Positions 12,891 to 18,227 of a DNA stretch of 32,000 bases are shown here, piece after piece. The stretch's first letter is position 1. Each line of letters starts with the position of its first letter. The position numbers and the translations under genes are program-made. A model generated the notes under the pieces. It was not told the DNA's origin. It did not search any database and worked only from the letters and a program-made list of their open reading frames with translations. Source of the stretch: Candidatus Velamenicoccus archaeovorus (lineage in GTDB: Bacteria; Omnitrophota; Gorgyraeia; Velamenicoccales; Velamenicoccaceae). The DNA lies in contig NZ_CP019384.1 of NCBI RefSeq assembly GCF_004102945.1, positions 1,710,001-1,742,000 on the forward strand, read 5' to 3'.

Positions 12891-14288
12891 TCAACGGTCA
12901 AGAACTTTCAAAAAAGCCTCCACGACGGCCGGGGCGAATTGCGTCCCGCTGCCTTTCTTGAGCTCGGCAATAGCGGTCTCTTTACTAAGCGCATCGCGGT
13001 AAGACCGCCTGGACGTCATCGCATCGTAGGCGTCCGCGGCGGTCACGATCTGCGCCCAGGGATCGATCTGACCCTCTTTGAGCCCGTCGGGGTACCCCTT
13101 GCCGTCATACCGCTCGTGATGAGAGCGCACAACAGCCAGCATCTTCTTTTCCAGAAAAATGGGCTTCAGGATCTCCTCCCCTGTCACGGGATGCTGCTTG
13201 ATTGTGGCCCATTCCTCATCGGTAAGCTTTTCGACCTTGTTGAGGATCCTCTCATCAATGCCCAGCTTGCCGATATCGTGGAGCTGGGCCGTCTCCTTGA
13301 GCATGTCGGCTTCTTGGACGCCAAACCCCATCTGGAGGGCGATGGCCCTCGAATAATCCGCTACGCGGTCCGAGTGTCCGCGCGTGTAGCTATCTTTGGC
13401 CTCGAGTCCCCGCACCAAAGACTCGACGATACGGTAAAAATAATCGCGCAGGGCACGGCGCGATTCAAGCAGGCTTCCTGCCATCTTATTGAAAGAATCC
13501 CCCAGCTGGCTGATCTCATCATGGCCCTTGATATCGACTTTATAGCCCAGGTCTCCGGCAGCGATGCGCTGCGTGGCCTCCCGGAGTTTCAAAATAGGCC
13601 CTGTTGTCTGCCTGGACACCCAGATGCCCAAAAGAAGAGAAAGAACGATGCCGAACGCCAGAACGATCAGAAAACGGCGGTTGAGTTCCCGCTCCATGTC
13701 GAAGACGTCTTTGGCGGAAATATCAATACCCAGCACGGCCACGGCCCGGCCCGTCTTGTCGCGCACAGGCGCATAGCCGGACAAAGTGACGCCCCACTCG
13801 TCGACCATCAGCTTTTTGTCGGCCGACGGGGCCTCGAACGCCTTTTCCATCTCCGGGAAACGCGAGGCGTCATAGGGATCGCCGGGATAAGAAGTCAGGA
13901 CGCGGTTGTTCTTATCCTTGACCACAGGATTGATGTCCACAATGAACTGCCAGGCCCCGTGCTTCTGCGTCTGCGTCATCGTATAGATATAAAGGATCCT
14001 GGGGTTTGTCTCCTTGATCCGGCGCAGGACCGCGGCGATCGCCTGATAAGCTTCGCTATCGACCCCTTGCCTGTCGAGGGGGACGGACATCAGCGTATCG
14101 CCGTCGATCATCAGGCTCGCCGTCTTTGTCAGGACGATAAGCCCCTGCCTCAACTGCTGGAACTGGGCCTCAAGGCTGACGCGATGGATCAGGATGTTGC
14201 CGAGGAAGGTGACGAAGAACAAGGAAAAGATGAACGCGACGGTGACTTTCGCGCGGAAACTCAAATACAGAGGAAATATTTTCTTCAT
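12891..14288 (-). CDS. Sensor HD-GYP phosphodiesterase (TM - periplasmic Cache-like domain - TM - HAMP - HD-GYP)
   Basis: 465-aa ORF. HAMP segment ILKLREATQRIAAGDLGYKVDIKGHDEISQLGDSFNKM. HD-GYP motifs HSDRV, LHDIGK and HHERYDGKGYPDGL. Confidence 0.9.
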   Translation of the reverse strand: MKKIFPLYLSFRAKVTVAFIFSLFFVTFLGNILIHRVSLEAQFQQLRQGLIVLTKTASLMIDGDTLMSVPLDRQGVDSEAYQAIAAVLRRIKETNPRILYIYTMTQTQKHGAWQFIVDINPVVKDKNNRVLTSYPGDPYDASRFPEMEKAFEAPSADKKLMVDEWGVTLSGYAPVRDKTGRAVAVLGIDISAKDVFDMERELNRRFLIVLAFGIVLSLLLGIWVSRQTTGPILKLREATQRIAAGDLGYKVDIKGHDEISQLGDSFNKMAGSLLESRRALRDYFYRIVESLVRGLEAKDSYTRGHSDRVADYSRAIALQMGFGVQEADMLKETAQLHDIGKLGIDERILNKVEKLTDEEWATIKQHPVTGEEILKPIFLEKKMLAVVRSHHERYDGKGYPDGLKEGQIDPWAQIVTAADAYDAMTSRRSYRDALSKETAIAELKKGSGTQFAPAVVEAFLKVLDR

Positions 14289-14415
14289 GGACGAGAAATC
14301 GCTCCTGTTCTTGCCGTAGTGTTAGCATCAGCATAACGCAAAAAAGGGGAAATGGGAATAAAAAACCGCAAGAAGGAACGCTGAAAAGGAAGCGGACAGG
14401 CCCGACAAAAACTTG

Positions 14416-14444
14416 TTGAATTCGAAAGGTATTTTTTGTATAAT
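14416..14444 (+). promoter_or_regulatory. Sigma70-like promoter (TTGAAT - 17 nt - TATAAT) facing the tRNA-Asp locus
   Basis: -35 TTGAAT at 14416-14421 and a consensus -10 TATAAT at 14439-14444, with a 17-nt spacer. The duplicated tRNA 5' segment starts ~20 nt downstream. Confidence 0.6.
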
Positions 14445-14463
14445 CTTCCCACTCTAAAGATTG

Positions 14464-14550
14464 CTTCGGGGACGTCGCTTTCCCGCCTGGCGCCCTTCGG
14501 GCTTGGCGGGATCCCGCCCAAGCGCAAGCGACGGCGGGAAGCCTGGTTTA
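14464..14550 (+). other. Stranded copy of the tRNA-Asp leader plus nt 1-24, split by a 59-nt twin-hairpin insert
   Basis: cttcGGGGACGTCGCTT (14464-14480) and AGCCTGGTTTA (14540-14550) are identical to 14832-14848 and 14849-14859 of the intact gene. The insert at 14481-14539 sits at the D-stem/D-loop junction. Confidence 0.85.
14481..14539. repeat. Twin-hairpin element E1 (TCCCGCC..GCGGGA | TCCCGCC..GGCGGGA, centre GGGATCCC)
   Basis: Two tandem hairpins use the same stem sequence. Same architecture and size as 15289-15349. Confidence 0.8.
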
Positions 14551-14590
14551 TTATTCTGGCTGTGATCCGAAAGAATAGTTCTTTTGTACT

Positions 14591-14860
14591 ATGCATTATG
14601 TGTATATAATCAGGAGCCAGAAGAACCATCAGTTTTATATAGGTTCAACTAAGGATGTTCGTGATCGCATCAAACAACACGAGCGAAGCGAGACAAAGTC
14701 GCTGAAAAATAAAGGTCCATTTGAGATAGTTCGTATCGAAGAGTTTGTTACAAAGACGGAAGCCCTAAAAAGAGAGAAGCAGATAAAACGCTATAAGGGC
14801 GGCCGCGCATTTAAGAAACTTATCGCAAAAACTTCGGGGACGTCGCTTAGCCTGGTTTAA
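14591..14860 (+). CDS. GIY-YIG nuclease family protein (small, UPF0213-like)
   Basis: 89-aa ORF: MHYVYIIRSQKNHQFYIGSTKDVRDRIKQH ... EEF ... ALKREKQIKRYKG (GIY, YIG, Arg and Glu blocks). AT-rich. The only convincing plus-strand CDS. Its last 9 codons and TAA stop lie inside tRNA-Asp. Confidence 0.85.
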   Translation: MHYVYIIRSQKNHQFYIGSTKDVRDRIKQHERSETKSLKNKGPFEIVRIEEFVTKTEALKREKQIKRYKGGRAFKKLIAKTSGTSLSLV

Positions 14861-14914
14861 GGCCCTTGATTGTCGATCAAGTGATCGTGGGTTCAAATCC
14901 CATCGTCCCCGCCA
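14836..14914 (+). tRNA. tRNA-Asp (anticodon GTC), CCA encoded
   Basis: Manual cloverleaf. Acceptor GGGGACG/CGTCCCC. D-stem GCTT/AGGC with an 11-nt loop. Anticodon stem CTTGA/TCAAG with loop TTGTCGA. 5-nt variable loop. T-arm GTGGG-TTCAAAT-CCCAT. Discriminator G, then CCA. Confidence 0.9.
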
Positions 14915-14920
14915 AAATAA

Positions 14921-14953
14921 AAGAGGCCGCACAATGTGCGGCCTCTTCTTTAT
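14921..14953 (+). terminator. Rho-independent terminator after tRNA-Asp (possibly bidirectional)
   Basis: AAGAGGCCGCA-caatg-TGCGGCCTCTT followed by CTTTAT, and preceded by AAAATAAA. Confidence 0.7.
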
Positions 14954-14962
14954 GTGCTTGGT

Positions 14963-15049
14963 CCCCTGCAAATTTCCCCCTCGCAAAAACACTCGTAAAT
15001 TCTGTCGCCCGCCTTCGGCGGCTCCACAATTTACTTCGTTTGCAAGGGG
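14963..15049. other. Long nested imperfect hairpin
   Basis: Outer arms CCCCTGCAAA / TTTGCA(A)GGGG. Inner arms GTAAATT / AATTTAC (14995-15001 / 15028-15034). Apical stem CCGCC-ttc-GGCGG. Confidence 0.5.
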
Positions 15050-15117
15050 TATTTTAGAAAGCGCAACCGCAACTATCCCTCGCTGCCGCTTCATTTCCCG
15101 ACAGCAGCTTGGGACTC

Positions 15118-15144
15118 GATTTTACTCGCTGCGCTCGTAAAATC
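15118..15144. other. 8-bp hairpin GATTTTAC / GTAAAATC, 3 nt beyond the tRNA-Val 3' end
   Basis: Perfect stem with an 11-nt loop. No T tract follows on the minus strand, so terminator function is uncertain. Confidence 0.55.
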
Positions 15145-15147
15145 TCG

Positions 15148-15221
15148 TGGGCGATGGAGGACTTGAACCCCCGACATTCTGCGTGTAAAGCAGACGCTCT
15201 AACCAGCTGAGCTAATCGCCC
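15148..15221 (-). tRNA. tRNA-Val (anticodon TAC), CCA not encoded
   Basis: Reverse complement: GGGCGAT TA GCTC AGCTGGTTA GAGC G TCTGC TTTACAC GCAGA ATGTC GGGGG TTCAAGT CCTCC ATCGCCC A. This is a canonical cloverleaf. Confidence 0.9.
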
Positions 15222-15288
15222 GAAAGCCTAACCTCCGCCGTAGGCGGATCAGCCCTGGCCTGCCCAAAGGGCAGCCGAGGCTGAAATT

Positions 15289-15349
15289 GTCCCGACGCTT
15301 GCCACCGGCAAGGTCGGGATCCCGACCGAACGCATGTGAGCGTCGGGAC
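15289..15349. repeat. Twin-hairpin element E2 (GTCCCGAC..GTCGGGA | TCCCGAC..GTCGGGAC, centre GGGATCCC)
   Basis: 61 nt. Two tandem hairpins with the same stem. The first loop itself holds the hairpin CTTGCC-acc-GGCAAG. Same layout as E1 at 14481-14539. Confidence 0.8.
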
Positions 15350-15479
15350 GCCAACCGCCCGAAATATAACCTCCACCACGAATGGATCAGGCTCCAGCTA
15401 AAACTGCCCGCCACAAAAATATCATTTAAGGCGGGTCCGCCTCTGGCGGAAACTAACCGCCCAATGCCTCTCTTCTCTG

Positions 15480-17885: not shown

Positions 17886-17946
17886 ACAATTTACGCGAAG
17901 CGAATAATATGAGTAAGCGTAAATTGTAGTCCCGCACCTGCGGGAC
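17886..17946. other. Two adjacent perfect hairpins upstream of atpI
   Basis: ACAATTTACGC (17886-17896) pairs with GCGTAAATTGT (17917-17927): 11 bp with a 20-nt loop. GTCCCGC-acct-GCGGGAC lies at 17929-17946. Confidence 0.7.
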
Positions 17947-17959
17947 GTCCGCGAATTAA

Positions 17960-18227
17960 ACCCAGCACGAATTTTATATTTTTAATGATTCTGCTATCCG
18001 CGCTTTTAAATATGTCCTTGCTTGACCGTATTGCTTTAGCTTTGTCTCTCTTCTCCTTGCGTCAACTTCCGAAAGAAAAGCCTCATAATAAACGAGCTTC
18101 GATGCCGCACGATCTTTATCGTGCTGCCGGATACGTCTTTGTAAATCGCTTGTATAACCGTAATAAAAACTCGCCGCTATCTTTATCTCTTAAAACATAC
18201 ACGTAGTACATAAAATTCGTGCTGGGT
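17960..18227 (-). mobile_element. 268-bp GIY-YIG mini-element bounded by a perfect 18-bp inverted repeat
   Basis: ACCCAGCACGAATTTTAT (17960-17977) is the exact reverse complement of ATAAAATTCGTGCTGGGT (18210-18227). The AT-rich interior is filled entirely by a GIY-YIG reading frame. Both the start codon and the stop codon overlap the repeat arms. Confidence 0.7.
17974..18211 (-). pseudogene. GIY-YIG nuclease gene with a +1 frameshift in a T5 run
   Basis: Frame 0 reads MYYVYVLRDKDSGE and then stops after 29 codons. The next frame continues FYYGYTSDLQRRIRQHDKDRAASKLVYYEAFLSEVDARRRETKLKQYGQARTYLKARIAESLKI*. Removing one T from GAGTTTTTATTAC (plus-strand A5 at 18165-18169) restores a 78-aa GIY-YIG protein. 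Confidence 0.75.

Follow-up and report, generated by a model that had tools for sequence, protein, structure and literature searches.

The closest precedents for the element described here are the mobile open reading frame (ORF) elements of fungal mitochondria, known from atp6 of Allomyces macrogynus and from atp6, atp9, cox2 and nad3 of Glomus, in which a free-standing endonuclease ORF of the LAGLIDADG or GIY-YIG type enters a host gene along with a replacement for that gene's end, the gene remaining functional with its native part displaced beside it and close relatives having an empty site (PMC3630166). The element in question lies in a 32,000-nucleotide stretch of the genome of Candidatus Velamenicoccus archaeovorus, of the phylum Omnitrophota (contig NZ_CP019384.1, positions 1,710,001 to 1,742,000; hereafter the window), where 368 nt have been inserted in or at the 5' region of a tRNA-Asp gene that is kept whole by means of a duplicated 5' segment. 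This feature is probably a 368-bp insertion cassette, an autonomous member of a widespread and apparently undescribed family of hairpin elements whose targets are tRNA genes, which survive through a partial duplication. As read from its sequences, the family consists of a gene for a catalytic-domain-only GIY-YIG protein (UPF0213/Slx1-like) together with CCCGC(C)/(G)GCGGG hairpins situated inside partial tRNA copies. The cassette shares with the mitochondrial elements all of the properties listed above, and differs from them in that they replace the 3' (C-terminal) end of protein genes, with the ORF downstream, whereas the cassette occupies the 5' end of a bacterial tRNA gene; in that their endonucleases are full-size proteins with DNA-binding parts, whereas the cassette enzyme is a catalytic domain of 80-90 aa; and in that the cassette has an obligatory, sequence-specific hairpin module and two copies that are identical rather than diverged (PMC3630166).

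The other closest analogue is SegB of phage T4, a free-standing GIY-YIG homing endonuclease encoded in a tRNA gene cluster, which passes its own gene, along with flanking tRNA genes, to relatives without it (PMC2330249). Like the cassette, it places a GIY-YIG gene amid tRNA genes, and its site includes a conserved tRNA stem-loop motif (TpsiC); unlike the cassette protein, SegB is larger, phage-encoded and site-specific, and it has no hairpin module, partial tRNA duplication or overlap of ORF and tRNA (PMC2330249). In sequence and fold the closest matches to the cassette protein are the small URI/GIY-YIG domains of Slx1 and UPF0213 proteins (PDB 1ZG2, 1YWL, 4XLG). Slx1, YhbQ of E. coli and YazA of B. 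subtilis are regarded as one structure-selective nuclease family, and Slx1 cuts branched and stem-loop DNA, an activity that fits hairpin or cruciform recognition, although Slx1, unlike the cassette protein, has a C-terminal zinc finger and needs Slx4 (PMC7017083). The bacterial UPF0213 proteins form a large family to which no function has been assigned in about 20 years, nor has a tie between them and tRNA genes or repeats been reported.

More distant resemblances exist to REP/RAYT 'REPtrons' and IS200/IS605 elements, which likewise comprise many short, palindromic, ORF-less GC-rich hairpins and a few that lie beside a small dedicated nuclease gene, and in which a folded conserved stem is recognised; their enzymes, however, are HUH/Y1 transposases with covalent intermediates, whereas GIY-YIG chemistry is hydrolytic, and we know of no tRNA-arm targeting or target-gene duplication among them. 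Tyrosine-integrase islands and phages integrated in tRNA genes also rebuild the tRNA, using a copy of the displaced segment that the element brings with it, and a direct repeat remains, but it is the 3' part that they rebuild, and they are kilobases long and encode an integrase. The double-hairpin elements and GC clusters of fungal mitochondria are likewise small and mobile double hairpins, rich in GC amid AT-rich DNA and in some cases adjacent to mobile endonuclease ORFs, but they are organellar and unrelated in sequence, and to our knowledge have no specific association with tRNA gene arms. None of the systems compared unites a catalytic-only UPF0213-type GIY-YIG protein, an arm-substituting conserved hairpin and 5'-side rebuilding of a tRNA. 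A description of a bacterial small GIY-YIG/tRNA/hairpin module was not found in the literature, the coverage of which was incomplete, so that this is absence of evidence only. The original prediction, made from the letters of the DNA, knew of no description of the arrangement as a mobility mechanism, a statement that must be qualified to the extent that its logic has a precedent in the mitochondrial elements (PMC3630166).

Relatives of the locus were gathered using the neighbouring HD-GYP protein as an anchor, and loci other than the window are given here as L-numbers. The tRNA-Asp locus of the window has the following layout.

14416-14444, plus strand: native tRNA-Asp promoter, TTGAAT-17-TATAAT; an identical promoter lies directly 5' of tRNA-Asp in the empty site L085.
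14464-14480, plus strand: left repeat, part 1, with the leader and tRNA nt 1-13 (the 5' strands of acceptor and D-stem, and nt 8-9); 17/17 identical to 14832-14848.
14481-14511, plus strand: hairpin 1, TCCCGCC, 17-nt loop, GGCGGGA; identical in L091, one substitution in L092.
14512-14539, plus strand: hairpin 2, TCCCGCC, 14-nt loop, GGCGGGA; not in the empty sites.
14540-14550, plus strand: left repeat, part 2, a D-loop copy (tRNA-Asp nt 14-24); 11/11 identical to 14849-14859.
14551-14590, plus strand: AT-rich spacer or 5' untranslated region; unalignable among the window, L091 and L092.
14591-14860, plus strand: GIY-YIG nuclease ORF, 89 aa, predicted UPF0213/Slx1-like, catalytic domain only.
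14481-14848, or equivalently 14464-14831 given the 17-nt repeat, plus strand: 368-nt insertion relative to empty sites (alignment to L085 and L088; blastn).
14836-14914, plus strand: intact tRNA-Asp(GTC) including CCA (ARAGORN; Rfam tRNA score of 59 bits, the gathering score being 29).
14921-14947, plus strand: intrinsic terminator-like hairpin 3' of tRNA-Asp.

The 28-nt duplication, the promoter and the intact tRNA had all been picked out beforehand, and all were recovered at the same positions, the tRNA by ARAGORN and Rfam. The two repeats, CTTCGGGGACGTCGCTT at 14464-14480 and 14832-14848 and AGCCTGGTTTA at 14540-14550 and 14849-14859, are exact copies that each occur twice in the window, against an expectation of zero in 100 shuffles, which rules out a chance origin. 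They correspond to the 4-nt leader plus tRNA-Asp nt 1-13 and then to nt 14-24, nt 24 being the final base of the D-loop. The promoter is the sole sigma70-like site within 14000-15400. The stop codon of the ORF, TAA at 14858-14860, falls within GGTTTAAGG in the D-loop of tRNA-Asp, and 25 nt of the ORF, from the final base of codon 82 through codons 83-89 to the stop, come from the tRNA itself; the duplicated stretch with its 4-nt leader accounts for about nine codons, so that the earlier figure of nine tRNA-encoded codons is right for leader and tRNA together. Also as described earlier, the cassette is rich in AT, at 34-41% GC where the flanks have 55-65%, and encodes a single protein, the 89-aa GIY-YIG protein, with no integrase in its 368 nt, and none of the 10 large ORFs scanned in the window, all of them housekeeping genes, encodes an integrase or transposase. 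Rfam returned tRNA models only, even at permissive thresholds, for this region of the window and 20 related loci; a group I intron, a riboswitch or another known RNA family in the 5' region was rejected on that basis.

That the cassette is an insertion follows from comparison with empty sites, a check that had been proposed at the outset. Five relatives, L085-L087 (HD-GYP anchor 90% identical) and L088 and L089 (70%), carry tRNA-Asp without the ORF and without hairpins; the same promoter is followed directly by cttcGGGGACGTCGCTT|AGCCTGGTTTAAGG (in longer context ...TATAATCTTCCCACTCTAAAGATTGCTTCGGGGACGTCGCTT|AGCCTGGTTTAAGG...), and the tRNA-Asp is 100% identical to that of the window. Because the promoter abuts an identical tRNA-Asp in close relatives, the window carries a 368-nt insertion, which comprises, in order, 59 GC-rich nt, the 11-nt D-loop copy, the 40-nt spacer, the ORF, and a copy of the leader plus tRNA nt 1-13. 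This last copy forms the right end of the cassette, and the original 5' segment stays behind the promoter with the hairpins. In the empty-site alignment hairpins and ORF were gained or lost as a single 368-nt block. The predicted entry of the cassette in the D-loop is borne out as regards entry at the 5' part of the tRNA with duplication of a 5' segment; the exact point is ambiguous, since it could be nt 13|14, position -4 or any register inside the 17-nt repeat.

The same arrangement is found, identical, in four other assemblies of Candidatus Omnitrophota (L001-L004), giving a presence/absence polymorphism at tRNA-Asp in which the window and L001-L004 are filled and L085-L089 are empty. Diverged versions of the cassette occur in L091-L093, with proteins 78% (L091) and 71% (L092 and L093) identical to that of the window. 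Four independent assemblies and the diverged homologous loci exclude an assembly artefact, which the original prediction had named as a possible undoing of its own reading. Since L085 is much nearer to the window than L091 is and yet is empty, either a lateral gain or a precise loss has to be assumed. In L091 (2860-2935), a remnant of the 3' end of a GIY-YIG ORF (the last ~35 nt, GACGAGCATTTAAAAAACTCATAGCAGAAAATTC) abuts the left tRNA-Asp copy on its upstream side. A junction of ORF end, tRNA nt 1-13 and hairpin thus exists, as expected if the unit were tandem or circular, and the remnant reads as evidence of an earlier tandem or second insertion. The layout of the mitochondrial elements (an ORF with a second copy of a terminal segment, the gene intact and the other copy displaced) is seen in the window and at 27+26 other loci. 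Divergence from the native copy, as in the mitochondrial elements, is not seen in the window, where the duplicated copies are identical (17/17 and 11/11); diverged tRNA copies do occur elsewhere, at the window's tRNA-Val gene and in L012.

The other side of the tRNA gene is variable as well. Sister strains diverge right after the CCA of tRNA-Asp (window 14915-15146 versus L001 5480-10900, L002 8299-11750 and L003 2300-5750): L001 has ~5 kb with DUF87 and NucS_C genes where the window has nothing, and L002 and L003 encode a 1020-aa Metallophos/AAA/nSTAND protein. These strain differences point to a variable, defence-island-like hotspot distinct from the 5' cassette. At the empty site of L085 (398-2774), RES and NarE-like toxin-domain genes lie past tRNA-Asp in place of the V-ATPase operon, indicating that gene order around tRNA-Asp has been rearranged among close relatives.

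The part of the cassette that best characterizes the family is the 59 nt that split the upstream copy, which had been overlooked as an element. These 59 nt form a conserved double hairpin (folding energy -37.9 kcal/mol), its two hairpins joined through the palindrome GGCGGGA|TCCCGCC, placed exactly between tRNA-Asp nt 13 and 14 of the left copy with no tRNA bases lost. Across three lineages (window, L091, L092), the run from TTCGGGGACGTCGCTT through hairpins 1 and 2 to AGCCTGGT shows two substitutions and one loop indel. Left copy and hairpins are ~95% conserved, whereas across that divergence the ORF DNA keeps 75% identity, its synonymous sites are saturated, and the spacer is unalignable. 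The left copy and hairpins are therefore the most constrained part of the cassette and not decaying debris, and the proposal that the old 5' part is a stranded remnant has to be given up, the more so as the architecture recurs with tRNA-Glu in other lineages. The exact 59-nt sequence has no second copy in the window, relatives having been detected through structure and motif only. Where the unit T-CCCGCC...GGCGGG-A lies between nt 13|14 or 35|36, target bases are neither gained nor lost, that is, there is no target-site duplication. The stem sequence is constant across phyla and the loops range from 2 to 45 nt; half-sites held at such variable distances could be read jointly only if folded, which argues for recognition of a folded hairpin or cruciform, in DNA or RNA, and not of a linear duplex site.

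The ORF itself, predicted as an 89-codon GIY-YIG gene, is verified by a match of its product to Pfam PF01541 (residues 1-68; E 1.9e-17; 63.7 bits, the curated cutoff being 22.6), and residues Y5, Y16, G18, R26, H30 and E62 are invariant among 24 homologues, as are R61, Q64 and K66. The conserved catalytic set of the superfamily, with the Tyr of 'GIY', that of 'YIG', the Arg and the metal-binding Glu, is thereby present. An AlphaFold2 (AF2) model has a pLDDT of 85.5 and the superfamily's fold of a three-stranded sheet with helices, the tRNA-encoded tail (residues 82-89) being modelled as disordered, and Foldseek gave matches to 1ZG2, Slx1 (TMq 0.60-0.65), the catalytic domain of I-TevI and the N-domain of UvrC. 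Sequence relatives are 1ZG2 (E 1.4e-13), 1YWL (2.4e-09), Slx1 (about 1e-4) and I-TevI (5e-4), the nearest solved relatives being the UPF0213 proteins BH0048 and EF2693. By these matches the protein is a UPF0213/Slx1-like catalytic domain, closer to that branch than to UvrC or I-TevI, and a putative nuclease. Only the ~80-aa catalytic domain is present: an attached DNA-binding domain, as in I-TevI and the Seg proteins, is lacking, and so is the C-terminal PHD/RING zinc finger of eukaryotic Slx1 proper, the protein ending at residue 89. Nonsynonymous divergence from L091 (dN) is 0.14 with synonymous divergence (dS) saturated, the pattern of a protein under purifying selection. A profile search gave 23,096 homologous clusters with a threshold of E<=1e-3 and 5,254 with one of E<=1e-10; a phage collection yielded no homologues and plasmids one weak match. 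The C-terminal tails of homologues resemble translated tRNA 5' ends (SGTSLSLV, SPSSSLV, FGDVA).

The association of this gene with tRNAs and hairpins is not peculiar to the window. A scan of one genome per species with the peptide pattern E[KH]QIK[SR][YF]K provided 80 loci from Omnitrophota, Planctomycetota, Bacteroidota, Patescibacteria, Gammaproteobacteria, Zixibacteria, Acidobacteria, Nitrospirota and others. Among the 88 homologous ORFs at these loci, 82 have a same-strand tRNA, a CCCGC...GCGGG hairpin or both beside them, and 63 are abutted by an intact same-strand tRNA, whereas a random gene would be expected to have a same-strand tRNA within 100 nt in well below 1% of cases (a rough figure from typical tRNA gene densities). 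The arrangements are these.

27 ORFs, arranged as in the window: hairpin(s) upstream, and on the same strand an intact tRNA that adjoins or overlaps the 3' end.
10 ORFs: tRNA downstream, with no strict hairpin match.
26 ORFs: intact tRNA just upstream and hairpin(s) downstream.
10 ORFs: internal units of tandem arrays.
9 ORFs: hairpin only.
6 ORFs: neither tRNA nor hairpin, several of them at contig ends.

The neighbouring tRNAs are those for Glu, Asp, Pro, Ser, Tyr, Lys, Thr, Gln and Trp. Hairpins of the form CCCGC-N2-9-GCGGG occur at 3.42 per kb within 150 nt of the ORFs against 0.084 per kb in the rest of the same loci, a 40-fold enrichment that, of 32 possible G/C pentamer stems, is seen only for CCCGC/GCGGG and its overlapping shifts. 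Nearly every ORF of this branch has a hairpin 5-90 nt away, including those of AT-rich Patescibacteria. In a control for tRNA proximity, 2 of 15 tRNAs far from a GIY-YIG ORF had a hairpin, a comparison with too few tRNAs and with a cut-off unsuited to layouts in which the ORF separates tRNA and hairpin.

Exact-match mapping of tRNA against ORF flank, together with inspection, placed the hairpin always within a partial copy of the neighbouring tRNA, either inserted or in place of an arm. It is inserted at the junction of D-stem and D-loop in the window (13|14) and in L006, L017, L024 and L072 (12|13 of tRNA-Glu), these four having two hairpins each, joined by GGGATCCC. A hairpin replaces the D arm (nt 12-24) in tRNA-Pro of Bacteroidales, the anticodon arm in L007, L010, L015, L011, L012 and L030, and the T arm in L044, L047 and L037. 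The pseudo-copy tracks the local tRNA variant lineage by lineage (GTCCCCATCGTC versus GACCCCGTCGTC for Glu; Asp in the window), and an extra 9-15 nt of tRNA always follow the hairpin. Tandem arrays are present in L013, L044, L047 and L075. Those of L044 (2432-2893; 7 x 66 nt) and L047 (2604-2875; 4 x 68 nt) are built of units of upstream flank, tRNA-Pro nt 1-10 and a CCCGCC hairpin (with or without an anticodon arm) and end in a real tRNA-Pro, after which come GIY-YIG ORF(s) and then pseudo-tRNA-Pro copies with both the D and T arms replaced by hairpins.

Two further observations concern these pseudo-copies. ARAGORN calls tRNA-Pro or tRNA-Lys genes with a CCCGCC-NNN-GGCGGG hairpin as D arm in L013, L039, L075, L021, L056 and L073, and such hairpin-armed 'tRNAs' are probably non-functional pseudo-tRNAs that inflate tRNA counts in annotations of Bacteroidota metagenome-assembled genomes. 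In L012 (2880-3320; Roizmanbacteria), a hairpin-bearing pseudo-tRNA-Thr, split in its T loop by the real tRNA and the ORF, shows compensatory acceptor-stem changes against the adjacent real gene (GCCCGGA/TCCGGGC versus GCCTGGA/TCCAGGC), and its T arm differs from that of the real neighbour and is identical to that of tRNA-Thr in L011. This pattern suggests that either the pseudo-copy or the real tRNA-Thr of L012 derives from another lineage.

Hairpins with partial tRNA copies also exist without the ORF, and a GIY-YIG gene with a hairpin exists without a tRNA; the window holds both.

15222-15462, minus strand: three hairpin modules with partial tRNA-Val 5' copies, ORF-less relatives of the cassette, 5' of tRNA-Val (15147-15221, minus strand).
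15451-15462, minus strand: GGGCGGTTAGTT of module (a), followed by hairpins at 15436-15450 and 15407-15435.
15349-15364, minus strand: TTTC plus GGGCGGTTGGCG of module (b), followed by a 59-nt double hairpin at 15290-15348 with stems TCCCGAC/GTCGGGA.
15234-15248, minus strand: the hairpin of module (c), just before tRNA-Val.
17931-18226, minus strand: second GIY-YIG gene, frameshifted, ATG at 18211, between the V-ATPase I and D genes.

In the double hairpin at 15290-15348 all four half-sites have changed together (CCCGAC/GTCGGG) with pairing preserved, which on the face of the sequence is a coordinated compensatory change. The distal copy GGGCGGTTAGTT matches the tRNA-Val of L091 but differs from that of the window (GGGCGATTAGCT); in L091 only 15 nt separate tRNA-Val from the ATP-synt_C stop codon. 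The second GIY-YIG protein is 33% identical to the first, and its gene has an extra T in the window and is intact in L001 (13669-13905; 78 aa). A perfect 15-nt inverted repeat (18212-18226 and 17961-17975) flanks the gene, the hairpin CCCGC-AGGT-GCGGG (17931-17944) comes after it, and there is no tRNA in the vicinity. L091 lacks the gene, its V-ATPase D and I genes being 9 nt apart, and in L003 the intergenic region is too diverged for an informative alignment. A GIY-YIG gene dissociated from tRNAs had been named beforehand as counting against the link with tRNA genes, and this one does so in part; since it has a hairpin all the same, the hairpin accompanies the nuclease gene even away from tRNAs.

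Scanning metagenome contigs for CCCGCC-N5-30-GGCGGGATCCCGCC-N5-30-GGCGGG gave at least 120 stretches, with 82 usable elements among the matches listed, to which the following counts refer. A tRNA lies within 60 nt of 12 of the 82, where the tRNA density of the contigs leads one to expect ~1.7%, and the flanks of 13 copy a nearby tRNA. The outer stem is extended by at least one pair in 69 (~38% expected) and by at least four pairs in 20 (~2% expected). In L145 (Glu), L164 (Ala) and L173 (Gly), the anticodon loop of a 5' partial copy is interrupted exactly between nt 35 and 36 by T-CCCGCC...GGCGGG-A, and the intact tRNA follows that copy after 19-47 nt or beyond an ORF. Only ~5 of the 82 double hairpins have a GIY-YIG ORF within 200 nt, so that, as with miniature inverted-repeat transposable elements (MITEs) and REP sequences, many palindromic units are ORF-less and few stand beside a nuclease gene. 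A partial tRNA duplication lacking the GIY-YIG ORF had been foreseen as a finding that would tell against the ORF as its cause, and in part it has been made: the hairpin-bearing 5' copies at tRNA-Val, L164 and L173 indicate that the duplication goes with the hairpin module, whether the ORF is in cis or not.

These ORF-less elements are what gives the strongest alternative its standing, namely that the hairpin or double hairpin is the sole mobile entity, MITE-like and moved by another enzyme or by replication or repair errors, with the GIY-YIG gene a passenger or an independent occupant of tRNA-proximal niches. The rarity of a nearby ORF among the metagenome double hairpins and the duplications that need no ORF in cis are both what it would predict; against it, nearly all ORFs of the branch have a hairpin within 5-90 nt, the tRNA-free copy included, and in the window hairpins and ORF form one 368-nt block with no other candidate enzyme in the insert. 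We regard this account as unlikely.

Slightly less likely again is that the module is a device of the host, or one at the RNA level, and not a mobile element. Hairpin-substituted pseudo-tRNAs would then be tRNA-like signals for processing or stability (punctuation by RNase P/Z, protection by a 5' stem-loop), or RNAs that regulate a tRNA-linked nuclease gene or act as its decoys, the gene standing in tRNA operons for the sake of co-expression. Such a role would accord with the replacement of whole arms at exact boundaries with the cloverleaf outline kept, with a constraint on the module stronger than that on the ORF, with the compensatory stem variant, and with a single promoter for ORF and tRNA, implying a cotranscript, and a protein under purifying selection. 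It sits poorly with presence/absence polymorphism at an otherwise identical site in close relatives, with tandem amplification, remnants and a frameshifted copy, and with the many tRNA species used, the AT-rich cassette in a GC-rich host and the lack of an Rfam match; a stem sequence invariant across phyla, moreover, points to a protein recognition site and not to a generic stabiliser. That the duplication is the attachment-site scar of an integrase island, or a chance or assembly artefact, with the small ORF incidental, is effectively refuted, for although tRNA genes are classic integrase targets and the 3' side of tRNA-Asp is a variable island hotspot in sister strains, the 368-nt insert has no integrase, its tRNA repeat is 5'-terminal and not 3'-terminal, the repeats lie far beyond chance and recur in at least four independent assemblies and in diverged lineages, and the census ties them to GIY-YIG genes family-wide.

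The preferred reading, a tRNA-targeting insertion cassette, is also suggested by its selfish-looking traits, the arrays, the ORF remnant in L091 and the frameshifted second copy being typical of selfish DNA. On this reading, the tRNA-Asp promoter would transcribe the pseudo-copy, hairpins, ORF and tRNA as one transcript, from which RNase P would release the tRNA. The nuclease gene would in that way use a strong promoter; because release of the tRNA would leave the ORF without a stop codon, translation may compete with processing. The ORF would simply read into the tRNA up to the D-loop TAA, its tail being unconserved and modelled as disordered. Less certainly, the nuclease may recognise the hairpin or cruciform, or the stem-loop-forming DNA of a tRNA gene, and then cut; the lack of a DNA-binding domain and the kinship to structure-selective Slx1 are grounds for supposing that it recognises folded DNA. 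Homology-dependent repair by the host, or recombination, would then act between the tRNA segments that flank the hairpin and a tRNA gene of the chromosome, with copying or integration of the unit as the outcome. If the native unit is the ORF with a pseudo-tRNA carrying the hairpin, a crossover 5' of the hairpin would give pseudo-copy, ORF and intact tRNA, as in the window, and a crossover 3' of it would give intact tRNA, ORF and hairpin-bearing pseudo-tRNA, as in Bacteroidales and some Patescibacteria. Unequal exchange would produce arrays, recombination between the 17-nt repeats would regenerate a clean empty site, and ORF-less single and double hairpins would be non-autonomous relatives mobilised in trans. 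A broader extension, which we offer tentatively as less likely than not, though with a substantial chance of being right, is that UPF0213-type GIY-YIG proteins are dedicated nucleases of phylum-spanning hairpin mobile elements, with recognition of a folded stem, entry at tRNA stem-loop junctions or loops, built-in partial duplication, and flanking tRNA arms as homology or guide.

Several points weigh against the cassette reading. Its steps beyond insertion are inferred, no cleavage site, excised form or transfer event having been seen, and GIY-YIG enzymes are hydrolases that cannot join DNA alone. The intact tRNA of the filled allele retains the presumed target, leaving immunity to re-cleavage unexplained, and because the repeats are identical the native 5' part is indistinguishable. 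The precise exchange of an arm for a hairpin, keeping a cloverleaf-like outline, also fits selection on a folded RNA. Beside the majority of double hairpins there is no GIY-YIG gene, which makes the link between enzyme and element a statistical one; the 80 loci, retrieved with a single pattern, sample one branch of the family; and the nearly empty phage and plasmid searches leave no known vehicle for horizontal spread.

If the reading is correct, it would provide a first biological role and a testable substrate (the CCCGC hairpin or cruciform, and tRNA gene DNA) for the UPF0213/YhbQ/YazA-like family with its thousands of clusters. The element also accounts for the pseudo-tRNAs called by gene finders, such as the tRNA-Pro of Bacteroidales with a GC hairpin for a D arm, for tRNA-like units arrayed in tandem, and for the unusual C-terminal tails that some small ORFs have. 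A structure-recognising nuclease paired with its hairpin may be of interest as a tool. The insertion shows that bacterial tRNA genes can be invaded from the 5' side by an element of less than 400 bp that carries no integrase and rebuilds its target.

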